Positions 3,672 to 64,000 of a stretch of 64,000 nt of DNA are shown here, piece by piece. How positions within the stretch are numbered: position 1 is the first letter of the stretch; each line of letters starts with the position of its first letter. Position numbers and translations under genes: made by a program. The stretch covers positions 103,119 through 167,118 of IMG/VR virus record IMGVR_UViG_3300012936_000001; one strand, given 5' to 3'. This DNA comes from a virus. The notes beneath the pieces were generated by a model. That model was not told the origin of the DNA, did not search any database, and worked only from the letters and a program-made list of their open reading frames with translations.

Positions 3672-4121
3672 ATGGTTGAAATATTTTCACAGTGGATTGC
3701 GACCCATAAAGCAGTCACATCATGGTTCCATGCTGCTCACCACCTTACAAAAGGTGTTGGGTTCGGCGGGGACCATGTTAACATTTACGGAAAGATATAT
3801 ACAGAATTTCAAGAAGACTTTGATGCTATAGTTGAAAAAGGGCTTGGGTTATGTAACGATGAGACGCTAGCAGATCCTCTCACCATATTGTCATCCGCAT
3901 CCACAATGTTAGGCCAATACTTTCAGCCATCAAATTCTTGCCCAGATAAATTAGCCATCGCTGCATGTGAATTGTCAAAAAGATATGTCGATTTATTACA
4001 GCAGTTTTATACGAGGTTTGAGTCCTGTGGGCATTTAACTATGGGTCTTGACGACATGATGGCAGCCATGGCAAATCGATACGAAACGCATGTTTATCTA
4101 CTACAACAGAGAGTAAAATAA
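3672..4121 (+). CDS. Dps/ferritin-like protein
   Basis: HAAHHLTKG...DH...EDFDAIVEK ferroxidase-like pattern; helical, 149 aa. Confidence 0.7.
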   Translation: MVEIFSQWIATHKAVTSWFHAAHHLTKGVGFGGDHVNIYGKIYTEFQEDFDAIVEKGLGLCNDETLADPLTILSSASTMLGQYFQPSNSCPDKLAIAACELSKRYVDLLQQFYTRFESCGHLTMGLDDMMAAMANRYETHVYLLQQRVK

Positions 4122-4534
4122 TGAAACTTACAAAAAGACAGCTTAAGAGAATTATAAAAGAAGAGTACACACGGTTGGTAAGCGAAGGTCTTATCGCAGA
4201 GTCTTATGGGCAAGATTATCGAAACCAAAAGAAAGCTATCGGCCGCAACACTGGCTACTTTGATATGCTTTCACAAAACAGATACCGCCCCTCTCCTGAC
4301 ACAGTTTTTAACATGATAGACAAATTACATGGTAAGCCAGGCAAGACGATCGCTGCTAAGCTCGCATCTCATAGAGGAATATCGCTCGATGATCTTGAGG
4401 CCGCTTATTCAGAAGCAAAACTTGACGGTGGACCTGACGCTGGAATTATTGAGGCTGCTATCGACTATAAGAAATATGGTCTTCCAAGAACAAAAGACAC
4501 ATATGTTCCATATCAGCAAGGTGGCCCAGAATGA
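4121..4534 (+). CDS. Leader-tagged hypothetical protein (MKLTKRQLKRIIKEEY...GLIAE)
   Basis: Shares the 27-aa N-terminal leader with six other ORFs in the window. Confidence 0.85.
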   Translation: MKLTKRQLKRIIKEEYTRLVSEGLIAESYGQDYRNQKKAIGRNTGYFDMLSQNRYRPSPDTVFNMIDKLHGKPGKTIAAKLASHRGISLDDLEAAYSEAKLDGGPDAGIIEAAIDYKKYGLPRTKDTYVPYQQGGPE

Positions 4535-11492: not shown

Positions 11493-14400
11493 ATGAAACC
11501 AACAAAATTTGTCGGATTGCATGCTCACGATGGCTTTTCGACTTTCGATGGCCTTGACTATCCACAGGATCACATTGACTTTGTAAGATCCAACGGCATG
11601 AATGCAATGGCCATTACGAATCACGGGCACATGAATTCGTATGCACACGCGCAGCTTCACGTTGAAAAGATTAATAAAGCCGGAGCTAATTTCAAGTTCA
11701 TTCCAGGCTGTGAGATGTATGTTCATCCCGACTTGAATCTTTGGCAACTAGAATACGACATTCGCAAAGCGAAGAAGAAGGGCAACCTAGAAGAGGCGGC
11801 CCGCCTAGAAGAACTACGTAAAGAGATAGATCCCACCATTCAATCGTCTGGTGATGATGTCGAAGAAGTTGCAACAGAAGACGCCGGTCTAACGATCGAG
11901 AATGAAGACGAAACAAAGTCTGGAAAGTTCTTTGATCCAATCAAAAGACGTCACCACTTGGTAGTTCTTCCTCGAACCTCAACAGGGCTGCAGCGGCTTT
12001 TTCATCTAGTGTCTCGTGGATACAAGGAAGGATTTTATCGCTTTCCTCGAGTTGATTATAAGATGTTGAAAGAGGCTGCCAAAGGTGGACATATAATGGT
12101 GTCGACAGCCTGCCTAGGTGGTCCGTTGAGCTATGAAGTCTTCAAGCAGTTGGATGGAATAGAGTTCGATGACATACGCCCTGAACTTCTTGATAATCCA
12201 GAATTACGCAAAAAGATTATGCAGAACGTATCCATTGCATATAATCAGCTGGTCAATGCAATCGGAGAAGAGGGAGTAATGCTCGAACTTCAGTTCAATC
12301 GACTCGGCGCACAACATCTTGTGAATCGCGTTCTTATTGAGTTCGCTCGAGATAATGGCCTTACAGATAAACTCATCGTAACATGTGATTCACATTATTC
12401 AAAGCCTTCGCATTGGAAAGAGCGTGAGCTTTACAAAAAACTTGGATGGATGAATCACCGTGAATTCTCACCGGATTCTTTGCCGAAGTCTATCGAAGAA
12501 CTCAAGTGTGAACTGTATCCAAAGAATGCAGATCAGGTGTGGCAGTCATACAAAGATACAACGCAGGGAATGCCGTTCTATTCAGACAAGGAAGTATTCG
12601 ATGCTGTCGAACGCACTCACTATATTGCCTATGAGATGATTGGAGATATTCAGCCGGATCGCTCTCAAAAGCTTCCGTCGTATGTAATCCCAAAAGACAA
12701 GACAGCTGATCAGGCACTTATTCTTTCATGTAAAAAAGGGCTTGTTGAAAGAGGTCTGCATAAAAGTAAAGAATACATCGATCGACTTAAGTATGAACTT
12801 ACGGTCATCAAATCAAAGAACTTTTCAGAATACTTCTTGACCACCAAGGCAATTATCGACTTGGCAAGAAAGCATATGTTCGTCGGCCCCGGCCGCGGCT
12901 CTGGAGCCGGTTCACTTGTGAATTATGTACTCGGTATCACAGATGTTGATCCTATCAAGTATGGTCTTCTCTTTGAAAGATTCTTGTCTCCTGACCGAAA
13001 AGACATGCCAGACATCGATACAGACATCGGCGACCGAGATCAATTGATTACCTTGATGCGTGAAGAGTTCGGAACAGAGAACATTGTTCCTATCTCAAAC
13101 TACAATACTTTCAAACTCAAGTCATTGGTAAAAGACATATCTAGATTCTATGGCATTGAGTTCTCAAAGGTAAACAAGGTTCTATCAAGTCTAGACCGAG
13201 ATGTTCGCCAAGGGCTTCGATCGGACGGTGTAGAAGTGAATGGCCCTGTCGAAGCAAAGCTAGAGTGGGCAATAAAGTATTCTCCGGCTTTCTCAAAATT
13301 CATCGAAGATCATCCGGAGATTGCAGAACCTATTGATGTATTGTTCAAACAGAACAAGGCGCTTGGCCGACATGCAGGTGGAGTTATTGTATCAGAAAAT
13401 ATTGCAGAACGAATGCCTCTCATTCTTGCTCGTGGAGAACTACAGACTCCGTGGGTAGAAGGAGCTTCGTACAAACATCTAGAACATTTTGGTTGGGTAA
13501 AGTTTGATCTTCTCGGCCTAGAAACTCTTCGGATCATAGAAAGAACAATCGAGCTTATTCTCAAGAGAAAGAAAGGAATCAAGGATCCATCGTTCGATCA
13601 GATCAAGGATTGGTTCAATGAGAATATGGCAACGGACACTATCGACTTTGATGATCAACGAGTGTATAAAAACGTGTATCATAAAGGCAAGTGGGCTGGT
13701 ATATTTCAGTGTACTCAGGCAGGTGCCCAACAATTGTTCAAGAAGGCTCAACCGTGTTCGATTGTAGATATAGCAACGCTAACTTCTATCTATCGTCCAG
13801 GACCGCTTGGAGCAAACGTAGATAGATTGTATCTTCGCAACAAGAAGGAGTACAGTGCAACATACGGCCATCCTCTCATCGAAAAGATTCTTGAAGAGAC
13901 ATTCGGTTGCATTATCTTTCAAGAGCAGGTGATGGAGCTTGCGAACAAGGTTGCTGGTATTCCAAAAGAGGAATGTAATTCTGTACGTAAAATGATGAAG
14001 CCGCAAGGCTCATCCAAAGATGCTTTGTCAAAAGCAAAAGCACTGGAAGATAGATTCGTCGGCGGCTGTATCGAGAATGGCATCTCTAGAAAGATTGCTC
14101 AAAAGTTGTTCGATGACATTATGTTGTTCGCATCGTATGGGTTCAATAAGTCACACGCGGTTGCTTATGCGATTGATTCGTACTATTGTGCTTGGCTGAT
14201 GACATACCATGAAGAAGAATGGCTCTGTGCGTATCTCGAATCCATGGAAGGCAATCCGGACAAACGAGGAAAAGCTTTCTCCGAAGTCCAAGCTCTGGGA
14301 TATGAGATTGTTCCAATCGATATCAACTACGCTGAAAAGAACTGGACTATTCTTCCAGGAAAGAAGTTCATGCCATCGTTCCGTTCCTGCAAAGGGATTG

Positions 14401-29329: not shown

Positions 29330-30478
29330 GTGAATCTTAAGAGCCTAAGAAAAATAATTTTGGAGACAATCAATGAAAAAAATACTCCCTCCAAAAGAAA
29401 AAACCGCAAAAAATATTTAAATAAAGTATTGTCAGAAGCTAGCCAAATATTATTAGAAGAAGAACAGGCTGACTATAAGACAATAGAAGACAAAATAAGA
29501 GGATTTAACTATGCTCTGAAAGATGGCGCGGAGGAAACAAGAAGTTTTCTTGATAACGAAGGAAAGAGTTCTACTTTTCGGGATTTCCTAAAGTCCGGAG
29601 AAGACGATGGATCAGCCGATGATGACGTTGTCAAGATATCAGAAGCTCCCCAGACCCTAGAATCTCTTCAGCCAAGTCAAGGATTTATTGATGCGGGTCA
29701 ATCTGTCTCATTCTCTTTCTGCAATTACAAATTTGGATTCAAGCCACCTCTCATGGGCGGTCCATATACTGCAAAAGACCCCCTGAGTTGTGCTGGCGAC
29801 GTTATACTCGACGGTCACCATAGATGGTCCGGCGGTGTAGCCGTAAATCCAAAAGCGCAGATAAACACTCGAGATTTTGGAGTAAAAGGAGACCCGGGTC
29901 AAAAATTAGCAAAAATGCAAGCCGCGGTTGCATCTCAGACTCCTGCAAATCAGCCTATTCCTTCGAAAAGCGGAGATAAGTCTGGTGACATCATGGGTAA
30001 AAGTGCAGCTGAACTCGAACCTATCTTGACAAATATGTTAGGAAAAGCAGCGAGTGAATTTGATGGCAAAGCCGATGATGAAATAATTCTTGGGGATAAG
30101 TTTATTAATGATCTTAAGGCCGATACTGGAAACCGTGCTCAACTCAAGAGTGTTTTTGGAATAACTGAAGATGACCTAAATAACGTAAAACCTGAACAGA
30201 CATACGCTTCTTTCGATGCAATAGACTGTCCGGTAAGAAAAAAGATTATTGCAGGATCTAGTAAAAATCTTGCATCTATGAGAAAGCAAGCAGCTGGAAC
30301 CCCAAAAGAACGTGACGACATGCCTCAATTAGACCACGATGACATCGGAGGAGATGCTGGATTTGCACAGATTCGGAGAGATCTCGCAAAAGGTAGAATA
30401 AATATCGAGTCTCCTTATGTCAACGAAAATAAACAATTGAAAAGATGGAATAAATTAGCTGGTCTTCTTAAGGACTAA
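29330..30478 (+). CDS. ParB/Srx-fold-like protein with N- and C-terminal tags
   Basis: LQPSQ..ILDGHHRW; ends with NENKQLKRWNKLAGLLKD. Confidence 0.7.
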   Translation: MNLKSLRKIILETINEKNTPSKRKNRKKYLNKVLSEASQILLEEEQADYKTIEDKIRGFNYALKDGAEETRSFLDNEGKSSTFRDFLKSGEDDGSADDDVVKISEAPQTLESLQPSQGFIDAGQSVSFSFCNYKFGFKPPLMGGPYTAKDPLSCAGDVILDGHHRWSGGVAVNPKAQINTRDFGVKGDPGQKLAKMQAAVASQTPANQPIPSKSGDKSGDIMGKSAAELEPILTNMLGKAASEFDGKADDEIILGDKFINDLKADTGNRAQLKSVFGITEDDLNNVKPEQTYASFDAIDCPVRKKIIAGSSKNLASMRKQAAGTPKERDDMPQLDHDDIGGDAGFAQIRRDLAKGRINIESPYVNENKQLKRWNKLAGLLKD

Positions 30479-30490
30479 TTGGAGAAAAAA

Positions 30491-31771
30491 ATGAACATAA
30501 GACAACTTAGAAAATTGGTATTGGAAACTGTATCGGAAGAACGTCGACGACCATCTAGAAGGAAGCGTAGAGCGATCAAAGAGAACCGCTCAAAGAAACT
30601 TGCAAGAATTCTTCTTGAGGCAGATAAAGAATTAAAAGAACAAGAGGAAGGCGGTGCTGCGCCGGCAGCCACTGCAAACTATGCGGACATGGAACTTTCG
30701 ATGGTTGGTCTTGATGCAGGAAATGTTTATGATACAGTAACCGATTCATCTGAGGGTGACTTAAATGATCTTCAGAAAAATATAATTGCTCAGGATAAGA
30801 ATATGCCGAAAGACAAAGCAGGTTTCAGTGCATATGCAAAGGAACAACTGCCAGAAAAGGAAGAATTTATCAAGCGTTATAATGAAGTCGTCGCAAAAGT
30901 AAAAAGCGATGGTGGACGTGGTTTTCATAAGGCATACATGCCGGCCCTCGAAGGAGATGATGCTCCTCAAGTCAGCCAAGCGCTTACGGACGAAAATGCA
31001 CCTTTTGGAATTGATGTCGACGCTTCTCAAGGAAAGTTTGCTGATATTCTTGCAAAGGCCAAGAACATTCAGATAGATGGAAAGAATCTGCTTGATATGA
31101 CTGCTGCAGAGATGGCACAGAAAAAAGATCAGATCAAGACCGCCATGAAAGAAAATTCATGGTTTGCTGGCGATCTTCTACTTGAATTTTCCCCGCATGA
31201 TTCTTTCCCATGGCCTGGCGCAAAGAAAGCAATCGACGGAGCTAAAACTCTTGGAAAGGGCGCACCTATTCTAAAAGCAGATCAAATAACCGGCCCTGCT
31301 GCTCTGTTTCTTACTCTTGGGCATTTTGACGATGCTCCCGATAAGCTCGAACTCCCAAGTGAACCTGGTTCCGTTACAGCTGGGCAAGCGAAGCCTACCC
31401 AAACAAACATTCAGCTTGCGAAGTCTCTCAGGTTTGCCCTTAATAACATGTACGGTAAATGGGACACGGAAGGTATGGGCGGCGCGTATGCCACAAAGGA
31501 CGGAGATATTCTTGATGGCCATCATCGTTGGAGTTCTCAATATCTTAGAAACGGCGCGGCCGCTGACTTGCCTGGATTGTACAAGATCCAAGCTCCATTT
31601 TCTCAGGATCTCCTAAAAATGCTTACCGCCATTGGAAACGCAATGGGGCGTGGAACAAAAGAAGGTGAGCCTGATGCAAAGAAGGAAGCTGCATGGCATA
31701 AGGGAAATGTTATCAACGAAAACGCAGTTATCAATCGCTGGAACAAGCTTGCTGGCTTGTTGAAAGACTAA
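30491..31771 (+). CDS. ParB/Srx-fold-like protein with N- and C-terminal tags (paralog)
   Basis: AKPTQ..ILDGHHRW; ends with NENAVINRWNKLAGLLKD. Confidence 0.7.
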   Translation: MNIRQLRKLVLETVSEERRRPSRRKRRAIKENRSKKLARILLEADKELKEQEEGGAAPAATANYADMELSMVGLDAGNVYDTVTDSSEGDLNDLQKNIIAQDKNMPKDKAGFSAYAKEQLPEKEEFIKRYNEVVAKVKSDGGRGFHKAYMPALEGDDAPQVSQALTDENAPFGIDVDASQGKFADILAKAKNIQIDGKNLLDMTAAEMAQKKDQIKTAMKENSWFAGDLLLEFSPHDSFPWPGAKKAIDGAKTLGKGAPILKADQITGPAALFLTLGHFDDAPDKLELPSEPGSVTAGQAKPTQTNIQLAKSLRFALNNMYGKWDTEGMGGAYATKDGDILDGHHRWSSQYLRNGAAADLPGLYKIQAPFSQDLLKMLTAIGNAMGRGTKEGEPDAKKEAAWHKGNVINENAVINRWNKLAGLLKD

Positions 31772-31787: not shown

Positions 31788-32162
31788 ATGAAAATATCAA
31801 AAAGACAGCTCAAAAGAATCATCAAAGAAGAGTATTCTAAACTTAGACGTCGCGGACTAATCCGTGAGATGCATCATGATACTAGTCATCAACCATTTCA
31901 ATTCGATCGAAGTGATCCTATAGCCTGTGCAGAGTATGATGTTTTTGATAACAACTATGAAGGCTCTGTGCCTCCAGGTTGCTCCCCTCAGTGGAAAAAA
32001 GATTATGATGATGCTTTCGAGGAAATCGAAGCAGAATATGAGGAACATCTAATTCAACAAGAGCCTAGATCTTATGATGGATATGGTAGTTCAGACTATG
32101 GTTATGACGAGCCATACTATGATCCTGAGTGGGGAGATTCTCCAAAAGATAGGGAACATTAG
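31788..32162 (+). CDS. Leader-tagged acidic hypothetical protein
   Basis: MKISKRQLKRIIKEEYSKLRRRGLIRE leader. Confidence 0.85.
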   Translation: MKISKRQLKRIIKEEYSKLRRRGLIREMHHDTSHQPFQFDRSDPIACAEYDVFDNNYEGSVPPGCSPQWKKDYDDAFEEIEAEYEEHLIQQEPRSYDGYGSSDYGYDEPYYDPEWGDSPKDREH

Positions 32163-54949: not shown

Positions 54950-55140
54950 CAAAGACAGGTGATAGAGTAAGTCTATTTCATAATATAGGAAAAAAAGGCA
55001 CAGTAACCAAGATGATTCCAGTAAAAGTGCAAACATATTTTACACACGGTTCTGCAGGAAATACTTGGGCGCTAGTCATAAAATGGGATGATGGCACCGA
55101 AACTACGGAAAAATTAACCGATGTAATGCGAATCGATTAG
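54946..55140 (+). CDS. Small KOW/SH3-like protein
   Basis: GDRV...GTV...IKWDDG. Confidence 0.55.
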   Translation: MTKTGDRVSLFHNIGKKGTVTKMIPVKVQTYFTHGSAGNTWALVIKWDDGTETTEKLTDVMRID

Positions 55141-55964
55141 ATTCCAGCCATTTTTCTCATTCTTCGCAGGGTCCAGTCGTTCATCCTTCTGGACTCTGAC
55201 TTTTTTCCGTACTCTCTTTTATAATCAATCTCGCCAGGCGTAGTACGAGAGAATTTATATACTGTCAAATTGTTGACAAGGTCCATGCAGTGGTCTACTA
55301 CACTTTCACAGTTTTCTTCCCTGTCATCATAAAAGAAAACGTTCTTGCATTCAAGATCCCGGATGAGCATCTCGACAGTCTCTCCTTTTGGATCGTCTCC
55401 TACGCAGAATATATTTCTCTTTGATATCGGACAGCCAATGTACTCAAGATAATCATAGACATTCTGTCTATTGGCCTCGCCCTTCCGTGCAGTACAAATG
55501 TATACGTAATGCCCTTGTCCTAGCTTTTCACGCAAGATATCGGTGCCAAGGATCGGAACATAAGATTCTACGGGGACATCTTCCGGAATAGGGTAGTTCC
55601 ACCTGATAGTAGGATCTCCATAGTCGGCATCTCTGAGCGGGGAGAAATATTGGTTTCTCCATTCTTTTGTCATGACATTCCTGGCACTGATATAGCCATA
55701 CTGATCTAGGTCAATGCAAGAACCATCTACCGATCGGGGCGAGATCCCATGAGCCTTCATTATCCTTGCCGCTTCTCCAGTCCTGTCCGGATCACATGTG
55801 AGAAACTTGTTCCCGTCCTGGTGTCCGACATATAGCTTAAAGCTGGCATCGGGTGCAATAGTAAGTGTTTCATCGAAATCAAACACATGCAACTCTCGAT
55901 TCATTTTATCGGCTTTTACATTTAAACTTTCGACCATTAACTTCAGCGCTTTGATTCTATCCAT
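55137..55964 (-). CDS. HAD-superfamily phosphatase with N- and C-terminal tags
   Basis: VFDFDETL, ICTAR, K, FYDD; ends with SESRRMNDWTLRRMRKMAGI. Confidence 0.75.
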   Translation of the reverse strand: MDRIKALKLMVESLNVKADKMNRELHVFDFDETLTIAPDASFKLYVGHQDGNKFLTCDPDRTGEAARIMKAHGISPRSVDGSCIDLDQYGYISARNVMTKEWRNQYFSPLRDADYGDPTIRWNYPIPEDVPVESYVPILGTDILREKLGQGHYVYICTARKGEANRQNVYDYLEYIGCPISKRNIFCVGDDPKGETVEMLIRDLECKNVFFYDDREENCESVVDHCMDLVNNLTVYKFSRTTPGEIDYKREYGKKSESRRMNDWTLRRMRKMAGI

Positions 55965-56007
55965 AACTTTCTTCTCAACAATAAAAACCACATGCATAAT
56001 TATAACC

Positions 56008-56214
56008 ATGAGAAGGAAAAATGTATACGCAGATGTAAGAACAGGGGATCTTGTTCGCACGGGTTCCGGGGAAATAGGAATAGTTGTGGACATAGTGTCT
56101 TCAGAGTATGAAAAAGGAAGATTGAACCGGGTGTTCATAGACCCAAATATATATCATGTTCTTGTTGAAAACGAATGTATCACTCTTATAAGGGAGGGGT
56201 TTAGGGTAATATAA
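56008..56214 (+). CDS. Small KOW-like protein
   Basis: GDLV...GIVV pattern. Confidence 0.5.
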   Translation: MRRKNVYADVRTGDLVRTGSGEIGIVVDIVSSEYEKGRLNRVFIDPNIYHVLVENECITLIREGFRVI

Positions 56215-56654: not shown

Positions 56655-56854
56655 AAATAGGCAGCCTCGTTCTGGTTAACGATATATTTAAAGATGTGAG
56701 AAAATGCGGTAACATCGGCATAATTATAGGATGTAGATACGGATTCGGATTCGGCTTGACAGATTGGATTGTCTTGCTCAACGGAAAAGTATCTGAATAC
56801 AATGCCGGTGTGCTATGGCCAATAGAGGAAGTTTTATATGAAAAAAAAATATAG
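56603..56854 (+). CDS. Small KOW-like protein
   Basis: IGSLV...IGIII; start uncertain. Confidence 0.45.
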   Translation: MLDYDDKKNMAWGPEPLKIGSLVLVNDIFKDVRKCGNIGIIIGCRYGFGFGLTDWIVLLNGKVSEYNAGVLWPIEEVLYEKKI

Positions 56855-58994
56855 TTTGAAGAGAATATTGGGAGAAGCCCCTGAGACATTTTTTGGTTTG
56901 GATTTTCTTAAGCCGGAGATTGACACAGAACCGGTTGTGATAGATCCGGCTCAAAAAAGAGGCGGCCTATCATTGGGACAAATGTTTATTGTTTCCGGAA
57001 ATTTTGTTGGCATATCTAGAAAAAATGTTCTGAAGGGTTTCAAGAGACAGAAAGGCGATAGCCACTACACAGAGCTGACGAAAACTGAAAAAAAATCAAA
57101 AGGAATGACAGATGCGCAAATCACAGACGCATACGTGTCTCTCGATATAAATCCCCCTTCTGGAAAAGAGTTAAATGTTTTTGTGATCAGCGGACAAAGT
57201 AATTTCCTTAGAACTTTGCGACTAAGGGGATCGAAAGGCGGAACTCGGGGCGTGGGTTCTCTATCAAAGGCAGCGACATATCCAAAATTTGTTTATGGTT
57301 CTATCGTGAAGATCAATCCCCCAGACGGTAAAATCCCTACTGACTCAGCTCAGATAGAGAATATAAAGAATGCTTCAAAGAACAGAAACAGAGACGTGTT
57401 ATTCACCGGATGTGTTCCATTGGAAAGCCTTTATCTTGCATTAGACAAATCTGAAGGCGATACAGGTGTACTTTCGGTGGCTGAAAGGCAAAGTGCACTA
57501 GATGCATACAACGCACTGCAAAATACCCAAAAGACTACTATAGACACCTATCTCGAGCCCGGAGGCTTTAGGACATGGAAAGATGCAATAGAAGAAATTT
57601 ATCCTGCAGATAAAAAAGTATCAATAACAAAAGGCAAATTCAGTGGCGACCTATCAAGCACTGACAGTGCAAAGATTAAGAAACTTTTTAACGATAAAAT
57701 TGCCTCAGCTGCGGGAAGAGGCGAATTACTTCTAGCAAATATATTTCCAAATCTTGTTGAAATAGGCGGATCTGCTCAGGAGGCAGGAGTTGATCTTGTT
57801 GAAGTGGTTACCAACAAAAACTTCGAAGTAAAAGAACCAAAATTCAGAGTTGGTGTAAAATCTGTTGAACCTGCATTAGCATTCAGTGAGTTTATACAGC
57901 CTGTTCTTGAAGATATAAAATTAGTTCTGGCAAGGGAGGGTCAAATGATCGCAGAAGAGATCGCCCTGAAGACAACAGATGACATCAGGGCAATGTCAAT
58001 CGAAGATTTTGCAAATCTAATGGGCTTTGACTATAACTCACTCGACAGTAGTTCTAAGAGTAAATTTAATGCTGATTTCAAGTTAATAGAACAGATTTCG
58101 GTTGATGATTTATTAGGAGAAATACCCAAACAGACAGCTGCGAATATAGAATTGATTGGTGAACTGCAAGGTAAATTTAGGAGTTTGGAAGTAGCGCACT
58201 CAAACCTAGAGAAAGTAGCCAGAAATGTAGCGCAACCATATTTTCTGCAAGCCGCGCAATTAGTGAAAGCAAATTTATCCGACGGATCTTTGATAGCAGA
58301 GATGATTGGAGAGTCAGGGGACGTGCAAGAAGTCTTTCGGAAAAAAATATACGCTGAATATTTGGCAGCGATAGCACCAACCACAGTGTTTTCTGGTGGA
58401 AATATTATAGTGGTAACTGAGGAAGGCTACAGGATTTTTACACCAGAAAGCATGACAAGATTTGTTTTATCTGTTTTTATAAACGATGCCAAGCTCCTTG
58501 CACGAATTACTTCTGGTGGAGTTGGCATGGACATCAAATCAAAATTAGAGGAGGAGCCTGTCGCAGACTTGCAAACCTTTTTCGACGCCTATTCTGAAAC
58601 TTTGGGTGAGGATATGGCCGAAAAGTTAAAATTAACAACGGAGTCCAAATATTCGCTCATGAACATCCTTCGAGAAGACTGTGAATCAATGATCCTCGGA
58701 GATCCGATCGGTACACCGTATAGGGAAGAGATAAAATCAAAATCGAGAGAAGGAATCAAGTCAAAAGCGAAACTGTTCCGGATAGCCCAGAAGTCACAGT
58801 CCATGCACGACAGATTACTTGATGATGATAATCTTCCGGAATGGGTTCAGGACATGATAACGACATCCGAAGACAGACTTCGTGCGGCCTATGATTATAT
58901 CGAATATAAATTGCATAGGATGAAGACTGACGGTGTAAAGCTCACCGAGGCAAGAAAGAGAAAATTAATCAGTGACATGCTAAAAGTTATATAA
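56838..58994 (+). CDS. Multi-domain tagged protein with a PD-(D/E)xK nuclease-like core
   Basis: GRGELLL..GVDL..FEVK; tags KKKYSLKRILGE, ESKYSLMNILRE and LTEARKRKLI. Confidence 0.7.
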   Translation: MKKKYSLKRILGEAPETFFGLDFLKPEIDTEPVVIDPAQKRGGLSLGQMFIVSGNFVGISRKNVLKGFKRQKGDSHYTELTKTEKKSKGMTDAQITDAYVSLDINPPSGKELNVFVISGQSNFLRTLRLRGSKGGTRGVGSLSKAATYPKFVYGSIVKINPPDGKIPTDSAQIENIKNASKNRNRDVLFTGCVPLESLYLALDKSEGDTGVLSVAERQSALDAYNALQNTQKTTIDTYLEPGGFRTWKDAIEEIYPADKKVSITKGKFSGDLSSTDSAKIKKLFNDKIASAAGRGELLLANIFPNLVEIGGSAQEAGVDLVEVVTNKNFEVKEPKFRVGVKSVEPALAFSEFIQPVLEDIKLVLAREGQMIAEEIALKTTDDIRAMSIEDFANLMGFDYNSLDSSSKSKFNADFKLIEQISVDDLLGEIPKQTAANIELIGELQGKFRSLEVAHSNLEKVARNVAQPYFLQAAQLVKANLSDGSLIAEMIGESGDVQEVFRKKIYAEYLAAIAPTTVFSGGNIIVVTEEGYRIFTPESMTRFVLSVFINDAKLLARITSGGVGMDIKSKLEEEPVADLQTFFDAYSETLGEDMAEKLKLTTESKYSLMNILREDCESMILGDPIGTPYREEIKSKSREGIKSKAKLFRIAQKSQSMHDRLLDDDNLPEWVQDMITTSEDRLRAAYDYIEYKLHRMKTDGVKLTEARKRKLISDMLKVI

Positions 58995-59058
58995 AAAGAT
59001 AATATATATTAATAGGATAAGATAGATAGTCTGTGCCTATATCTAATCGGAGAACAAA

Positions 59059-59793
59059 ATGAGACTAACAAAAAGACAACTGAAAAGAATAATCAGAGAA
59101 GAGTATTCAAGGCTCAGAAGTCGTGGCTTGATCAAAGAAATGTATGAAGAATATTATCCCGAAGACGAATTCGATGCTTATGAACACGTAGAAAATACTA
59201 TGGGTGACGGGTCTCCCGATGCTCCAGGCATGTATGATGGTCTTACCGAAGATCAAATTGATCAGGTCCTTGATGTTCTTGACGAGATGAGAGAAGAAGA
59301 GGAAAGACGTCACGGGTACAGGGATGAGATGATGGACTATGACCCATCCCCTATGACGAACTATGATTCTTTCGGCTTTGCAACCTCAAGACCAGGTGGT
59401 CACATGGGCGAAAGCCGAAGAAGGAGAAGAACTCTGCGAGAAAGCATCGGGTCTACAGTTCTTGTAGAGATAGAAGAACTTCTTCTCGATGAACTCGGAG
59501 ATGACATTGATGCAAAGATATCAATGGCCAAGGCAGTTGCGCTTATAAAATCAAATATGCCGTATGTAATGAAAGGACAATCGGCAAAGGACATTGAGGA
59601 TTTTATATATAGTCACAACGATTTTTACCATGACATCGTAATAGACCCAATTTCTCGATCGGTTATGTTAAAACAAATATTTGATGACGACGATGAAACA
59701 ATTAGTTCACCCTATCATTACTCAGATTCACCTATACACCGCGGAAGCGTCGGAGTCAAAGCTGGCCGCAATCCTTTCCCGGGAGAATACTAA
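59059..59793 (+). CDS. Leader-tagged array gene 1
   Basis: MRLTKRQLKRIIREEYSRLRSRGLIKE. Confidence 0.88.
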   Translation: MRLTKRQLKRIIREEYSRLRSRGLIKEMYEEYYPEDEFDAYEHVENTMGDGSPDAPGMYDGLTEDQIDQVLDVLDEMREEEERRHGYRDEMMDYDPSPMTNYDSFGFATSRPGGHMGESRRRRRTLRESIGSTVLVEIEELLLDELGDDIDAKISMAKAVALIKSNMPYVMKGQSAKDIEDFIYSHNDFYHDIVIDPISRSVMLKQIFDDDDETISSPYHYSDSPIHRGSVGVKAGRNPFPGEY

Positions 59794-59794
59794 G

Positions 59795-60208
59795 ATGAGA
59801 ATCACAAAAAGACAACTCAAAAGAATCATCCGGGAAGAATACCAAAACTTAAGAGAGAAAGGCCTTATCAGTGAGATGAGCCGAAGGCCTCGTCCTTCCA
59901 ATGTTGACCGTCAGGCAATGTATAGTGGATACGGTGGGCCACCCGCTGTCTTCAATGCTCTTTCTATGGCCATAGCAAAAGTCATGAACATGAAAGGAGG
60001 AATGTGGATTCAAAAGAAAAGAAATCCTCTCCGAAGTCTCAAGAATGCTGTAAATACTATTATGATTAAGGATCCTGTTGTCTCCGACGAGTATTTTGAA
60101 ATTAGAGATAACCCCGCCTATGACTTTGGTCTACAAGAAATCATCGATCAATTGGTCATGGATGAAAGGGAAATAAAAAGAATCATATTGGACGTCGTAT
60201 TATCCTAG
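59795..60208 (+). CDS. Leader-tagged array gene 2
   Basis: MRITKRQLKRIIREEYQNLREKGLISE; true start is 59795 after GGAGAA. Confidence 0.88.
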   Translation: MRITKRQLKRIIREEYQNLREKGLISEMSRRPRPSNVDRQAMYSGYGGPPAVFNALSMAIAKVMNMKGGMWIQKKRNPLRSLKNAVNTIMIKDPVVSDEYFEIRDNPAYDFGLQEIIDQLVMDEREIKRIILDVVLS

Positions 60209-60218
60209 GAGCAAATAC

Positions 60219-60623
60219 ATGAAAATCACAAAAAGACAATTAAAAAGAATTATCAGAGAAGAATACTCTAGACTTAAACGAAGAGGCTTGATCAAAGAAA
60301 GTTTCGGGATGATGGATTCATATGGAAACCCAGACGAATACATCACAAACATGGAGATGGGCATAGGTTATTCCGATGCCGAAGAGATGCAAATAGACGA
60401 CTTGGACAAGATATTTGATGCCGTTGCAGACATTCAACGAAAAAATTTCAACTATGAAGATCTTGCGATGGCACCAGATGAAGTCATTCAACGTCTAATC
60501 ATGGAGTCAGAGCCTATTTTCGAATTGGCAATGGAAGCAACATACGGAGAGGGTTATGATCAATCTCCACTTTCCGATAGATGGCGGGGTTTTCTTATAG
60601 CTCTACTTTCTATGGGCCGATAA
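60219..60623 (+). CDS. Leader-tagged array gene 3
   Basis: MKITKRQLKRIIREEYSRLKRRGLIKE. Confidence 0.88.
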   Translation: MKITKRQLKRIIREEYSRLKRRGLIKESFGMMDSYGNPDEYITNMEMGIGYSDAEEMQIDDLDKIFDAVADIQRKNFNYEDLAMAPDEVIQRLIMESEPIFELAMEATYGEGYDQSPLSDRWRGFLIALLSMGR

Positions 60624-60643
60624 CAATTTATTTTGAGAAAAAA

Positions 60644-61132
60644 ATGAGAATAACAAAAAGACAATTAAAAAGAATTATTAGAGAAGAGTATTCTAGACTC
60701 AAACGAAGAGGGCTTATTCGCGAGATGAGAGGCGGAGGGCACTATGATTCAATAATGAGTGCTAACCCAGAATTTGAACTGGACCCTGGAGAGTTGCAAT
60801 CAAAAATGGCTCAGGCCCCCATGAAAGCTCGTAAATTAGCATCTGATCCAAGGATCCAAGCTGCGGAAGGAATGTTGGCACAACACGAACTCGGAGGACG
60901 GTTGATGCCTTTGCTCGACCAACTTTTGGAATCAGGCATTGTAACAGGTGATGACCAAATGACAGAAGCATTGTGTGAGATTCTTGGAGAGGCCGGCCTC
61001 AGTACGACTGTATATAATTATAGTTATGATGACCCATACGGCCCTTTTATTTCTGGACATAATATAGTTTGGATAAAACTTTCTGGAAACCAGGCTCTTG
61101 TCATGATCGACGATTATCGCGGACCTAGATAA
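60644..61132 (+). CDS. Leader-tagged array gene 4
   Basis: MRITKRQLKRIIREEYSRLKRRGLIRE. Confidence 0.88.
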   Translation: MRITKRQLKRIIREEYSRLKRRGLIREMRGGGHYDSIMSANPEFELDPGELQSKMAQAPMKARKLASDPRIQAAEGMLAQHELGGRLMPLLDQLLESGIVTGDDQMTEALCEILGEAGLSTTVYNYSYDDPYGPFISGHNIVWIKLSGNQALVMIDDYRGPR

Positions 61133-61155
61133 CAACAACTTAATTGGAGAAAAAA

Positions 61156-61800
61156 ATGAGAATATCAAAAAGACAACTTAAAAGAATAATCAGAGAAGAG
61201 TATTCGAAATTGAAGAGAAGAGGCCTTCTCCGTGAGATGGCCGGTGGACGACTGCGAGTAGGGACGAAGATTGGAAAAAACCATATTGGCCCGTCTGCAG
61301 CTGAATTTCCTGGGCTTCATACAATCGGCGAGCTCATGCACGGAAACTCTGTTGATGGAACCGGTTTTTATATCGCGCAGGATGATGAGGGAAATTATTA
61401 TCTGCCAGATCAGTATGGAGATGAGCCCTTTGGAGATGAGATCGAAGACATCCTATATTCAATGGTTCCTTCGAGAAAGAAAAAGAAAAAGCTGAAGAAA
61501 AAAGGCAAGAAAGCTATGAGAGGCCGTTCCTCGATGAGAGCGCCAATGGACCTCGGAAGGCACTATGTTGCTCCTGCAGATCCTGATGATGCGCAAGAGG
61601 CTATGGAACTTGCCATGGAATTTGGAATACCAAGTCCTCAAGTCGTTGGTCAAGTTGGTGGATACGGCAGCACGTATGTTATCCTAACTGATGGAATGGG
61701 TAAATATTATCTTCCTTTGACGGCAACAGAAGACGACGATCTTAGCGTTCAAGAACTTATTGAAATGCTCGACGATGCCAAATCCGAGGGCGATCTTTAA
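61156..61800 (+). CDS. Leader-tagged array gene 5
   Basis: MRISKRQLKRIIREEYSKLKRRGLLRE. Confidence 0.88.
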   Translation: MRISKRQLKRIIREEYSKLKRRGLLREMAGGRLRVGTKIGKNHIGPSAAEFPGLHTIGELMHGNSVDGTGFYIAQDDEGNYYLPDQYGDEPFGDEIEDILYSMVPSRKKKKKLKKKGKKAMRGRSSMRAPMDLGRHYVAPADPDDAQEAMELAMEFGIPSPQVVGQVGGYGSTYVILTDGMGKYYLPLTATEDDDLSVQELIEMLDDAKSEGDL

Positions 61801-61833
61801 CAACGTTCACAGACAACAAATCCTAAAATAAAA

Positions 61834-61893: not shown

Positions 61894-62958
61894 ATGATAG
61901 TAAGTCCAATTAACAATCACGCGAATCGCGTCTATTCTCACCGGACAGGCTGGGCGAGAATGTGGGCAAACTGCCTGGGAACAACACTAGGCTTCAACGC
62001 AGACTGGTCCAATGAACCCAAGGTATATCTTGAACATGGCATGGAGTGGAAAGTAGGTGCTAAGTCTATTAAATATTTCTTGGCTTCTGAGAAACAACTC
62101 AAAGAACTTGCCGAGGAAAACAAAAAGAGAGTTGCAGACGGCAAACCAAAAAAAGAATCTTCGTGGGAAAAGCTTGCGAAAAAAGCAAAGATGTTCGAGA
62201 ACTTTGAAGGACAACTATTCTCTCTCGACATCGACTGTCCTATGTACGGAACATTACTCAAGACAAGAATCAAACCATGGGTTCCTCAGGTCTTTAAGAA
62301 TCTCGACTTTGATAAGATTGATCAGGTCTGCAAAAGAGCGACAACGATAAAACAAGAAGACCTGAAAAGGGGATTTGTCGTTCTTGGAGATTCTCATTCC
62401 TTATCTGCTTGGCATGAAGACGCAGCTCTTTGTCGCAACGATGGCCAGACACTGAATGGAGCTATCAGCCGTGGGTTCAGTACATGGCTTCAGCCTTTCG
62501 TGGACGCTGGTTCAAAGATGAGCAAGCTTCGCCTCTACTTCGGCAACATTGATATACGTCATCACATCTGTCGATTGGCTACGACGAAAGAAGAACAGCT
62601 GACGATGACAAAAGATCTCGTACGACGATACTTTGCAGAGATTCAGAAGACGATAAAACAATATGATATTACTCACGTCGAAATAGTTGGAGCCTTGCCT
62701 ATCGAGAATGAATCTCGTCGACTTCCAAAGACTGGATACCATAAGGGAAAACCTTTTTGGGGAACATGGCAAGAAAGAAATGACGTTGCAGAAGCTTTCA
62801 ATGCTTTATGCAAAGGAATGTGCGAACGACTTTCAGGATACACTTATATTGGCTGGAAAGATTCATACAAGAACGAAAAAGGTGAACTTGACTTTGAGTA
62901 CATGGAAAGACCACAGTCGGTTCACATCTCACCCGAGCATTACATGTGGAGTATATAA
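61894..62958 (+). CDS. SGNH-like (GDSH) phage protein, probably linked to DNA modification
   Basis: LGDSHS, FGNIDIRHH, PIENESRRLPKTGYHKGKPFWG, SVHISP. Confidence 0.55.
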   Translation: MIVSPINNHANRVYSHRTGWARMWANCLGTTLGFNADWSNEPKVYLEHGMEWKVGAKSIKYFLASEKQLKELAEENKKRVADGKPKKESSWEKLAKKAKMFENFEGQLFSLDIDCPMYGTLLKTRIKPWVPQVFKNLDFDKIDQVCKRATTIKQEDLKRGFVVLGDSHSLSAWHEDAALCRNDGQTLNGAISRGFSTWLQPFVDAGSKMSKLRLYFGNIDIRHHICRLATTKEEQLTMTKDLVRRYFAEIQKTIKQYDITHVEIVGALPIENESRRLPKTGYHKGKPFWGTWQERNDVAEAFNALCKGMCERLSGYTYIGWKDSYKNEKGELDFEYMERPQSVHISPEHYMWSI

Positions 62959-62959
62959 C

Positions 62960-64000
62960 ATGCTATCTTCTCTTATTGAACTAAATGATTATTACAAAGA
63001 CTTTTTGCGATACTACAAAAAAGCAAAGAAAGTACAGGTGGAATGTAACCTAGGTGGAAAGCCATACGTCGGGTCTTGTGGTGATGACCTGATTGAACAG
63101 GTTCATATCTATGATACTGTAGAACGGCAACATGCTGGATTTCAGAACATGTTGCAAGATCTTTGGTTCGGAACCCAAGCTCCGAAATACTATAAATGGA
63201 ACAAAGAACACAAAGAGAGAAACGATTCTTATAATGATCAACACAAGTTCTGGAGCCGACGTGAATGGTTGTGGATTTTCATGTTTCATCGGATCACAGG
63301 ATCTGGCGCTTCCTTTGAAGCCGATCACGGCTATCGCAACTCTGTTATTCCTCATCTTGCAAAGCTCGAGACCTGTGAAAAGATGGCAGATTGGGTAAGG
63401 CACAATGATGATATACCCATGTTTACATCTATTGGTAATCAAATTCCAATGTTTCCATCAAAACATCTATGGGAAAGCTTGAACAAGTCAGGACATGAAT
63501 ATAAAACTCCAGGAAAACTCTGGATAGCTGAATGCATGACTCAGCTCGTCGATGATGTTTGGAGCTGGGTTGATAAGATAAGATACCTTGAAGAAAGAAA
63601 AGTTACCATTCGAGAAGTCGTAGACTTCATGTGTGAATGGAACAGAGACAGAGGGATGAAAAGATTCCACTTTCAGTTCACGGCAACTGCTGCAGACCTT
63701 GCGGATTACTTCCCAGATATCGTTGACCCGATGTCTCATATGTACTACGGCAAGAACGCAAAAGAATCCATGGACATGTTTGCTACAAAGATCGGCAGAT
63801 ACAAAAAAGATCTTTATTATGATTATGTGATGGAGTCGGCAGTCAAAGATACTGGCGGTGCTCCTCGCGACCTAGAGGACGTAATGTGTGACTACATTCG
63901 ATATGTCGAGAACTATATTCCCGACAGTAAACAAAAAACATATGAGCATCTTGATCGAACAACGGTCTGGAACTCATCGTCAATCACAAATCATCCAAAA
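62960..64000 (+). CDS. Helical DNA-base-modification enzyme candidate (aGPT-Pplase/amino acid:DNA transferase-like), runs off the window
   Basis: Hand-translated open frame MLSSLIELNDYY...FHRITGSG...TAADLADYFP...YYGKNA...DLEDVMCDYIRY; absent from the track because it has no stop. Confidence 0.55.
   Translation, partial: MLSSLIELNDYYKDFLRYYKKAKKVQVECNLGGKPYVGSCGDDLIEQVHIYDTVERQHAGFQNMLQDLWFGTQAPKYYKWNKEHKERNDSYNDQHKFWSRREWLWIFMFHRITGSGASFEADHGYRNSVIPHLAKLETCEKMADWVRHNDDIPMFTSIGNQIPMFPSKHLWESLNKSGHEYKTPGKLWIAECMTQLVDDVWSWVDKIRYLEERKVTIREVVDFMCEWNRDRGMKRFHFQFTATAADLADYFPDIVDPMSHMYYGKNAKESMDMFATKIGRYKKDLYYDYVMESAVKDTGGAPRDLEDVMCDYIRYVENYIPDSKQKTYEHLDRTTVWNSSSITNHPK

Follow-up and report, generated by a model that had tools for sequence, protein, structure and literature searches.

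A leader-coding repeat as probable capsid-loading tag and recombination handle in a cassette array of an uncultured marine T4-like jumbo phage

Five genes lying head to tail in an uncultured marine T4-like jumbo phage each open with the same 27-residue leader, and comparison of this array with its relatives shows, subject to the caveats attached to metagenome assembly, that cassettes turn over and that the leader-coding DNA serves as a handle for their exchange. The sequence analysed here (the window) comprises the final 64,000 nucleotides of a virus contig 167 kb long. We propose that the leader has a dual role, as a propeptide for capsid loading and as a repeat for homologous recombination, and assign this explanation a probability of roughly 0.68. 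As DNA, the ribosome-binding site (RBS) and leader together form a ~90-bp repeat (70–85% identity) opening every cassette. Whole cassettes are deleted, added, swapped or reordered when two copies of it undergo homologous recombination of a kind that is not site-specific, which always leaves a tagged, in-frame gene. As protein, the leader would be a basic amphipathic propeptide that brings small proteins into the assembling prohead core, where a gp21-type protease would cut after I/L-x-E at residue 14–15 and/or 27, freeing the payload in the head. Ejection of the payload into the host would be a further step, for which we consider the odds to be even.

The five open reading frames are all located on the plus strand, with spacers of 1, 10, 20 and 23 nt, and each begins with the 27-residue leader, as the sequence-only reading had described. 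Cassette A1 (59059–59793; 244 aa) is composed of the leader (59059–59139), an acidic module X, an Arg-rich linker (59407–59442) and a module Y. The linker, a candidate second cut site, ends in L126-R127-E128 before Ser129 and resembles the second half of the leader; the same motif ends L005:8643. The second payload that had been suspected in this gene is real, since in relatives module Y follows the leader directly, as a gene of 138–143 aa (Y alone in P0010 and P0015; the X+Y form in P0017, P0018 and P0021). Cassette A2 (59795–60208; 137 aa; leader 59795–59875) has a payload of net charge +3, cassette A3 (60219–60623; 134 aa; leader 60219–60299) has an acidic payload, and cassette A4 (60644–61132; 162 aa) has a mosaic leader (60644–60724). 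Cassette A5 (61156–61800; 214 aa; leader 61156–61236) encodes two small alpha/beta modules; the poly-Lys linker between them (window 61465–61515) differs in length among homologs. A 7-bp repeat, ACAACAA, occurs twice on the plus strand: the first copy (61132–61138) overlaps the A4 stop codon and forms the left end of the interval over which A5 is present or absent, whilst the second (61813–61819) is the fixed right boundary of the array in every relative reaching it. Two dispersed family members with a full leader lie elsewhere in the window (4121–4534 and 31788–32162, both plus strand).

The array is preceded by a spacer (58999–59058, plus strand), in which the RBS of the first cassette is accompanied by an AT-rich element that relatives retain. 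The left flank gene (56838–58994, plus strand; 718 aa) has a basic short N-terminus ending in L-G-E, a variable middle and a conserved 115-aa C-terminal domain (92% identical to that of L046); it is a second modular, tag-like gene. Its middle of ~590 aa is replaced in L046 (7076–8977), nearly absent in L013 (minus strand, 13021–13404) and probably nearly absent too in a contig of run X20, with N-terminus and C-terminal domain kept in L046 and L013; an IMG/VR search with the 718-aa gene gave no relative. The right flank gene (61894–62958, plus strand; 354 aa), 98% identical in L046, provides a synteny anchor. It belongs to a conserved gene block to the right of the array (window 61894–64000; L046:12472–16587), which in L046 includes a PLP-dependent enzyme; this block and a divergent thymidylate synthase (window 15127) may, we presume, constitute a DNA base-modification cluster.

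A degenerate 48-nt leader pattern matched seven times, at the five array leaders and the two dispersed members, compared with no match in 100 shuffles. In pairwise comparisons the array leaders are identical at 19–25 of 27 residues, with DNA identities of 69–83% and longest exact DNA runs of 11–26 nt. The earlier observation on codon usage is borne out: Leu8 is encoded by ctg/ctc/tta/tta/ctt, the codons for Ile11-12 vary, and pS (0.50–0.83) is far above pN (0.07–0.23). The leader peptide is under purifying selection, and the saturation of synonymous sites indicates that selection acts on the peptide rather than on the mRNA. The leader is predicted to form an amphipathic helix (residues 4–20), carries a net charge of +8 and contains I/L-x-E at residues 12–14 and 25–27. 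Across the clade, leaders of 14–15, 22 and 27 residues occur, each stopping at I/L-x-E; the short variant lacks the segment between the two sites. Among 65 payload families, all of which have the first I-x-E by selection, a second I/L-x-E is present within residues 17–32 in 57, against a background of 27%.

These properties also bear on the idea that the leader is a retained basic helix, docking payloads elsewhere (on DNA, the ribosome, RNA polymerase or a phage replication structure), or an N-terminus for strong translation. Charge and amphipathic character would suit such a function, as would the A-rich 5′ codons of the leader, its strong RBS and the position of most tagged genes outside the virion gene block. 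We nevertheless regard this idea as rather improbable, since leaders of all three length classes end at I/L-x-E, selection is on the peptide and the motif marks genes of the head module (see below). The location of tagged genes is not telling, as in T4, too, the ip genes are found away from the head block.

Syntenic loci, reached through payload searches, confirm the proposal that the array is expandable: among relatives with 91–98% identical flanks, cassettes have been gained, lost, swapped and reordered, so that an array of fixed content, which would have spoken against the proposal, can be set aside. In L046 (265 kb) the same flanks enclose, in this order, an extra 319-aa gene, module Y without X, A3 and a further three cassettes. 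L050 has a 98% identical right flank and six cassettes, with A4 as the sole ortholog and three containing the A5 domain as paralogs, whilst in L052–L054 the first position is taken by another cassette, F. A3 directly follows module Y in most relatives (L046–L049, L051–L058). A5 is absent, and A4 joined to the right flank, in L050, L063–L065 and one contig of run X2 (the tables for runs X2 and X4 being identical, the two entered the count a single time; stretches of run alignments without coverage were excluded). The joint at which A5 is gained or lost (61131–61813) corresponds to the 7-bp repeat beyond the stop codons; the leader is thus not the sole handle, the last cassette being gained or lost at a short repeat after a stop codon.

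The suggestion that RBS and leader act as a recombination handle is supported by three mosaic genes, in which three-way alignments of metagenome assemblies map the switch of parent to three different points. For A1 of the window, all 40 informative upstream sites, and likewise leader nt 5, 7 and 12, match the allele that precedes F, which is linked to the upstream gene, and nearly all sites from leader nt 21–36 onward, together with all 25 payload sites, match the A1-linked allele, placing the switch between nt 12 and 36; this pattern is what loss of F through leader-to-leader recombination would leave. The leader of A4 of the window agrees with the A3-linked allele as far as nt 69 and, from nt 75 onward, with the A4-linked one, and in A1 of L051 the switch lies inside a 21-nt RBS/ATG block. 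Three different payloads following A3 have the first 51–59 leader nucleotides exactly alike. Across 27 leader contexts, the 5′ third of the leader goes with the upstream cassette (0.89 versus a baseline of 0.81) and the 3′ third with the payload (0.86 versus 0.66), the pairs compared not being independent and p values therefore indicative only. Since the crossover points vary (RBS/ATG, nt 12–36 and nt 69–75), with no fixed exchange site of the integron type, the exchange is ascribed to ordinary homologous recombination and not to a site-specific system; an inverted repeat recurring between cassettes was sought in the array and none was found.

Every one of these sequences is a metagenome assembly, in which repeats can generate chimeras, and the A3–A4 and E–A1 junctions were each seen once only. 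The shuffling might then be an artefact, the repeated leader having served to link contigs of co-occurring strains; contig breaks are frequent at leaders, and one crossover falls within a 21-nt identical block. Two crossovers, however, occur where the parents share ~11 nt or fewer, and the Y–A3 and A4–right flank neighbour pairs recur in independent samples, namely those listed above; chimeric assembly is for these reasons unlikely to explain everything. In addition, a second assembly (X1, perhaps of the source sample) contains the flank–A1 junction with 0 differences over 383 nt, and whole cassettes are missing from the 265-kb relative. As an account of the shuffling, we consider misassembly highly improbable.

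The payloads had been described as sharing no visible similarity. Within the window this holds (best shuffle p 0.012–0.016, uncorrected, over 36 pairs), an internal duplication of A5 and a likeness between A1 and A3 being borderline only; it does not hold for the arrays of relatives, which contain paralogs. Four of the six L050 cassettes are gene 4 or share the gene-5 domain, and the C-terminal module of A5 constitutes a paralog family in relatives. Most payloads are acidic, with net charges of −28 (A1), −16 (A3), −9 (A4) and −10 (A5), and 85% of the ~65 payload families in this small sample are net negative, with a median length of 99 aa. One tagged cassette of L050 (1142–1444) encodes a 100-aa Cys-rich payload (~15 Cys), in contrast to the acidic majority. 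Searches of Pfam, PHROGs and NCBIfam with the five array proteins returned nothing, the ESM Atlas gave no usable match for the payloads, and none of the payload families scanned has a known family or fold match. The predicted model of A5 (mean pLDDT 60; C-terminal module ~80) gave no Foldseek match, and its best Z was 4.3, which does not show that the fold is new.

A further suggestion, that payloads were captured at their own ATG, had been based on the Met that follows the final Glu in five of the seven family members in the window. The count is correct, but the excess is absent across the clade, where, of 57 families, 21 have Ser and 9 have Met after the second I/L-x-E, and the homologs found carry the leader. 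Capture of foreign, leader-less ORFs by the leader at their own start codon is consequently not supported, and we judge it very unlikely, even with Met after Glu27 in eight of 26 families with a full-length leader. Leader-less homologs of the A1, A2, A4 and A5 payloads were sought, including in prokaryote genomes, and none was found; the A2 payload has two homologs, both with a leader. Moreover, the otherwise unrelated payloads of A4, cassette D and the A5 family share a few residues after the Met, implying that these residues were inherited together with the leader. Genes already tagged may in addition give rise to new payloads through duplication, divergence and the fusion of modules; fusion and duplication of modules are seen in gene 1, which occurs as Y or X+Y, and in the A5 family, with one or two modules.

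The genome encodes a T4-type terminase, portal, prohead protease and capsid, as homologs of gp17, gp20 (PF07230), gp21 (PF03420; S77 prohead protease) and gp23 (PF07068), the three PF matches being above cut-off and the gp21 homolog lying at G000:62079–62684, and has a bS21 homolog ahead of the scaffold gene. In 80 head modules of the clade, the motif of the first half of the leader starts 30 of 41 orthologs of one gene and 12 of 34 of another, both genes being located between protease and scaffold, and is found on none of the terminase, portal, protease, scaffold and capsid proteins. The two genes (G000:63171–63587 and 63651–63947), candidates for T4 gp67/gp68-like core proteins, sit where the T4 core genes do. 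The capsid propeptide contains invariant L-x-E at residues 24–26, 48–50 and 57–59, the last mostly followed by S or A, as in the leader. The T4-type head genes, the gp21-type cut motif and the occurrence of the same motif on two head-module genes together make packaging plausible, and by analogy with T4 we consider targeting to the prohead with cleavage to be probable. Against the dual role stand the length of the leader, 27 aa compared with 10–19 aa for T4 propeptides (PMC9026906), the acidity of most payload families, where T4 internal proteins are basic, the commonness of I/L-x-E as a triplet, the lack of a clear late promoter ahead of the array and the failure to find a cultured phage carrying the leader.

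Packaging and cleavage would equally be expected if the tagged proteins acted inside the head, as core accessories or as DNA-packing or filler material like the T4 gp67/gp68 fragments, rather than as host effectors, with turnover being largely drift eased by the repeat. The shared motif on two conserved head-module genes, the resemblance of acidic payloads to scaffold material and the lack of family and fold matches fit such a role. Orthologous payloads are, however, 65–98% conserved over folded domains and have fewer internal cut sites than core proteins (1.9 I/L-x-E per 100 aa in the five payloads, compared with 4.2–5.0 in the scaffold and two head-module proteins), and filler is hard to square with dozens of unrelated folds; we consider an exclusively in-head role unlikely, if less so than a docking or translational one.

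A candidate late promoter, ATA[ACT]TTA[AT], was identified in G000, where 30 of 65 matches precede a start compared with 9% expected; it lies mostly 22–35 nt ahead of the portal, scaffold, sheath and tube genes and also precedes several short-leader genes. The AT-rich element in the left spacer of the array is one mismatch off this pattern, and its promoter role is putative; upstream regions of G000 contained no match to the T4 late consensus. Several unrelated proteins (window 29330–31771, 55137–56138 (minus); G000:65212–66915) end in a motif resembling RW.KLAG, the conserved C-terminus of the scaffold, which is possibly a second, C-terminal capsid-binding tag. Derivation of the leader as a copy of a scaffold motif is not supported (hhalign probability 5%). 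The product of G000:97173–98009 (L233:6174–7010) has Cys9 directly after a basic 8-residue leader ending in L-K-E; it is a probable Ntn hydrolase, from a weak C45 match (E 1.7e-4), and could be activated by the prohead protease. The evidence for this is indirect, as C45 enzymes can self-cleave, and the predicted model (pLDDT 33) is unusable.

The leader is a clade trait: other IMG/VR genomes contain 25, 21 and 14 matches to it, and G001 has ~15 tagged genes in a run, apparently at the same locus. The sequencing runs with portions of the locus that were aligned to it are marine. The nearest cultured capsids, those of Flavobacterium phage immuto 2-6A and Microcystis phage Mel-JY01, are just 44–46% identical, and a leader profile matched neither phage. 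As to homology with the T4 capsid-targeting sequence (CTS), a tblastn search of 50,697 phage records with the leader gave no match, a 28-aa query being insensitive, and literature searches on the leader found nothing. Among 185,579 prokaryote genomes, the leader occurs only on a few contigs of marine metagenome-assembled genomes (MAGs), of which 305-kb and 101-kb contigs (L236–L240; NHDW01000006.1, PBIO01000025.1) contain arrays of at least 12 tagged genes. The leader-bearing contigs in five marine MAGs of unrelated taxa are probably mis-binned (jumbo) phage, and no host was named from them.

With the tag as a simple rule, probable head-internal proteins of an abundant uncultured phage clade can be listed from sequence. 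All three T4 internal proteins block restriction enzymes (GmrSD nucleases) (PMC12373910), and the payloads thus represent a ready library for anti-defence screens; anti-defence activity of the payloads themselves is a tentative proposal. Similarly tentative is the fullest reading, in which one coding sequence of a widespread marine jumbo-phage clade is at once virion-loading tag and handle for promoter-less, integrase-free cassettes of dozens of acidic, injected counter-defence effectors; if true, any payload entering the array would be packaged automatically. From the crossovers mapped here it can be seen how a handle for DNA recombination can be maintained by selection acting on a peptide, with every product in frame and tagged.

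In T4, internal proteins are directed to the core by propeptides of 10–19 residues, which gp21 then cuts off (PMC9026906, section 2.6), and the products of the T-even internal-protein (IP) loci share only the capsid-targeting sequence (PMC3012670). The array resembles T-even IPI–IPIII and the two variable IP loci (PMC9026906, PMC3012670, PMC12373910) in having a conserved N-terminal propeptide on unrelated small proteins, a propeptide end with the gp21 motif, T4-type head machinery and a hypervariable locus. It differs in that the tag is a basic helix of 27 (or 14/22) residues with two candidate cut sites, that there are 7–25 copies per genome, that payloads are acidic where those of T4 are basic, and that cassettes have no promoter or stem-loop of their own; the spacers measure 1–23 nt, and promoter-like matches number 9 (8.8 expected) and terminator-like matches 2 (3.3 expected). 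The head-gene order is similar to that of large phages with bS21 among the terminase, portal, protease and capsid genes (PMC9723584); the homolog here (G000:64938–65159) is on the head-gene strand, as in Mel-JY01, whereas it is on the reverse strand in the bS21 clades of that study.

The closest parallel for the handle is PeSL shuffling in the T4-like phages RB49 and phi1, where repeated promoter–stem-loop units are crossover sites (PMC2839356, which ascribes plasticity of the IP locus to analogous non-coding elements). In both systems a repeated element of ~100 bp opens ORFan cassettes, serves homologous recombination and yields chimeric elements, with crossovers at varied positions, including the interval from Shine-Dalgarno to ATG. 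The PeSL is non-coding, however, whilst the handle described here consists of the RBS and a protein-coding leader that is maintained because its peptide is under selection. What is added here is the mapping of crossovers, together with the finding that capture of payloads at their own ATG is not supported; crossovers in CTS-coding DNA may already be noted for T-even loci. Since the payloads are acidic, cassettes are without their own promoter or stem-loop and packaging is inferred only, we do not count the array as a member of either the T-even IP or the PeSL class; it works like both combined, the tag-coding DNA itself being the handle.
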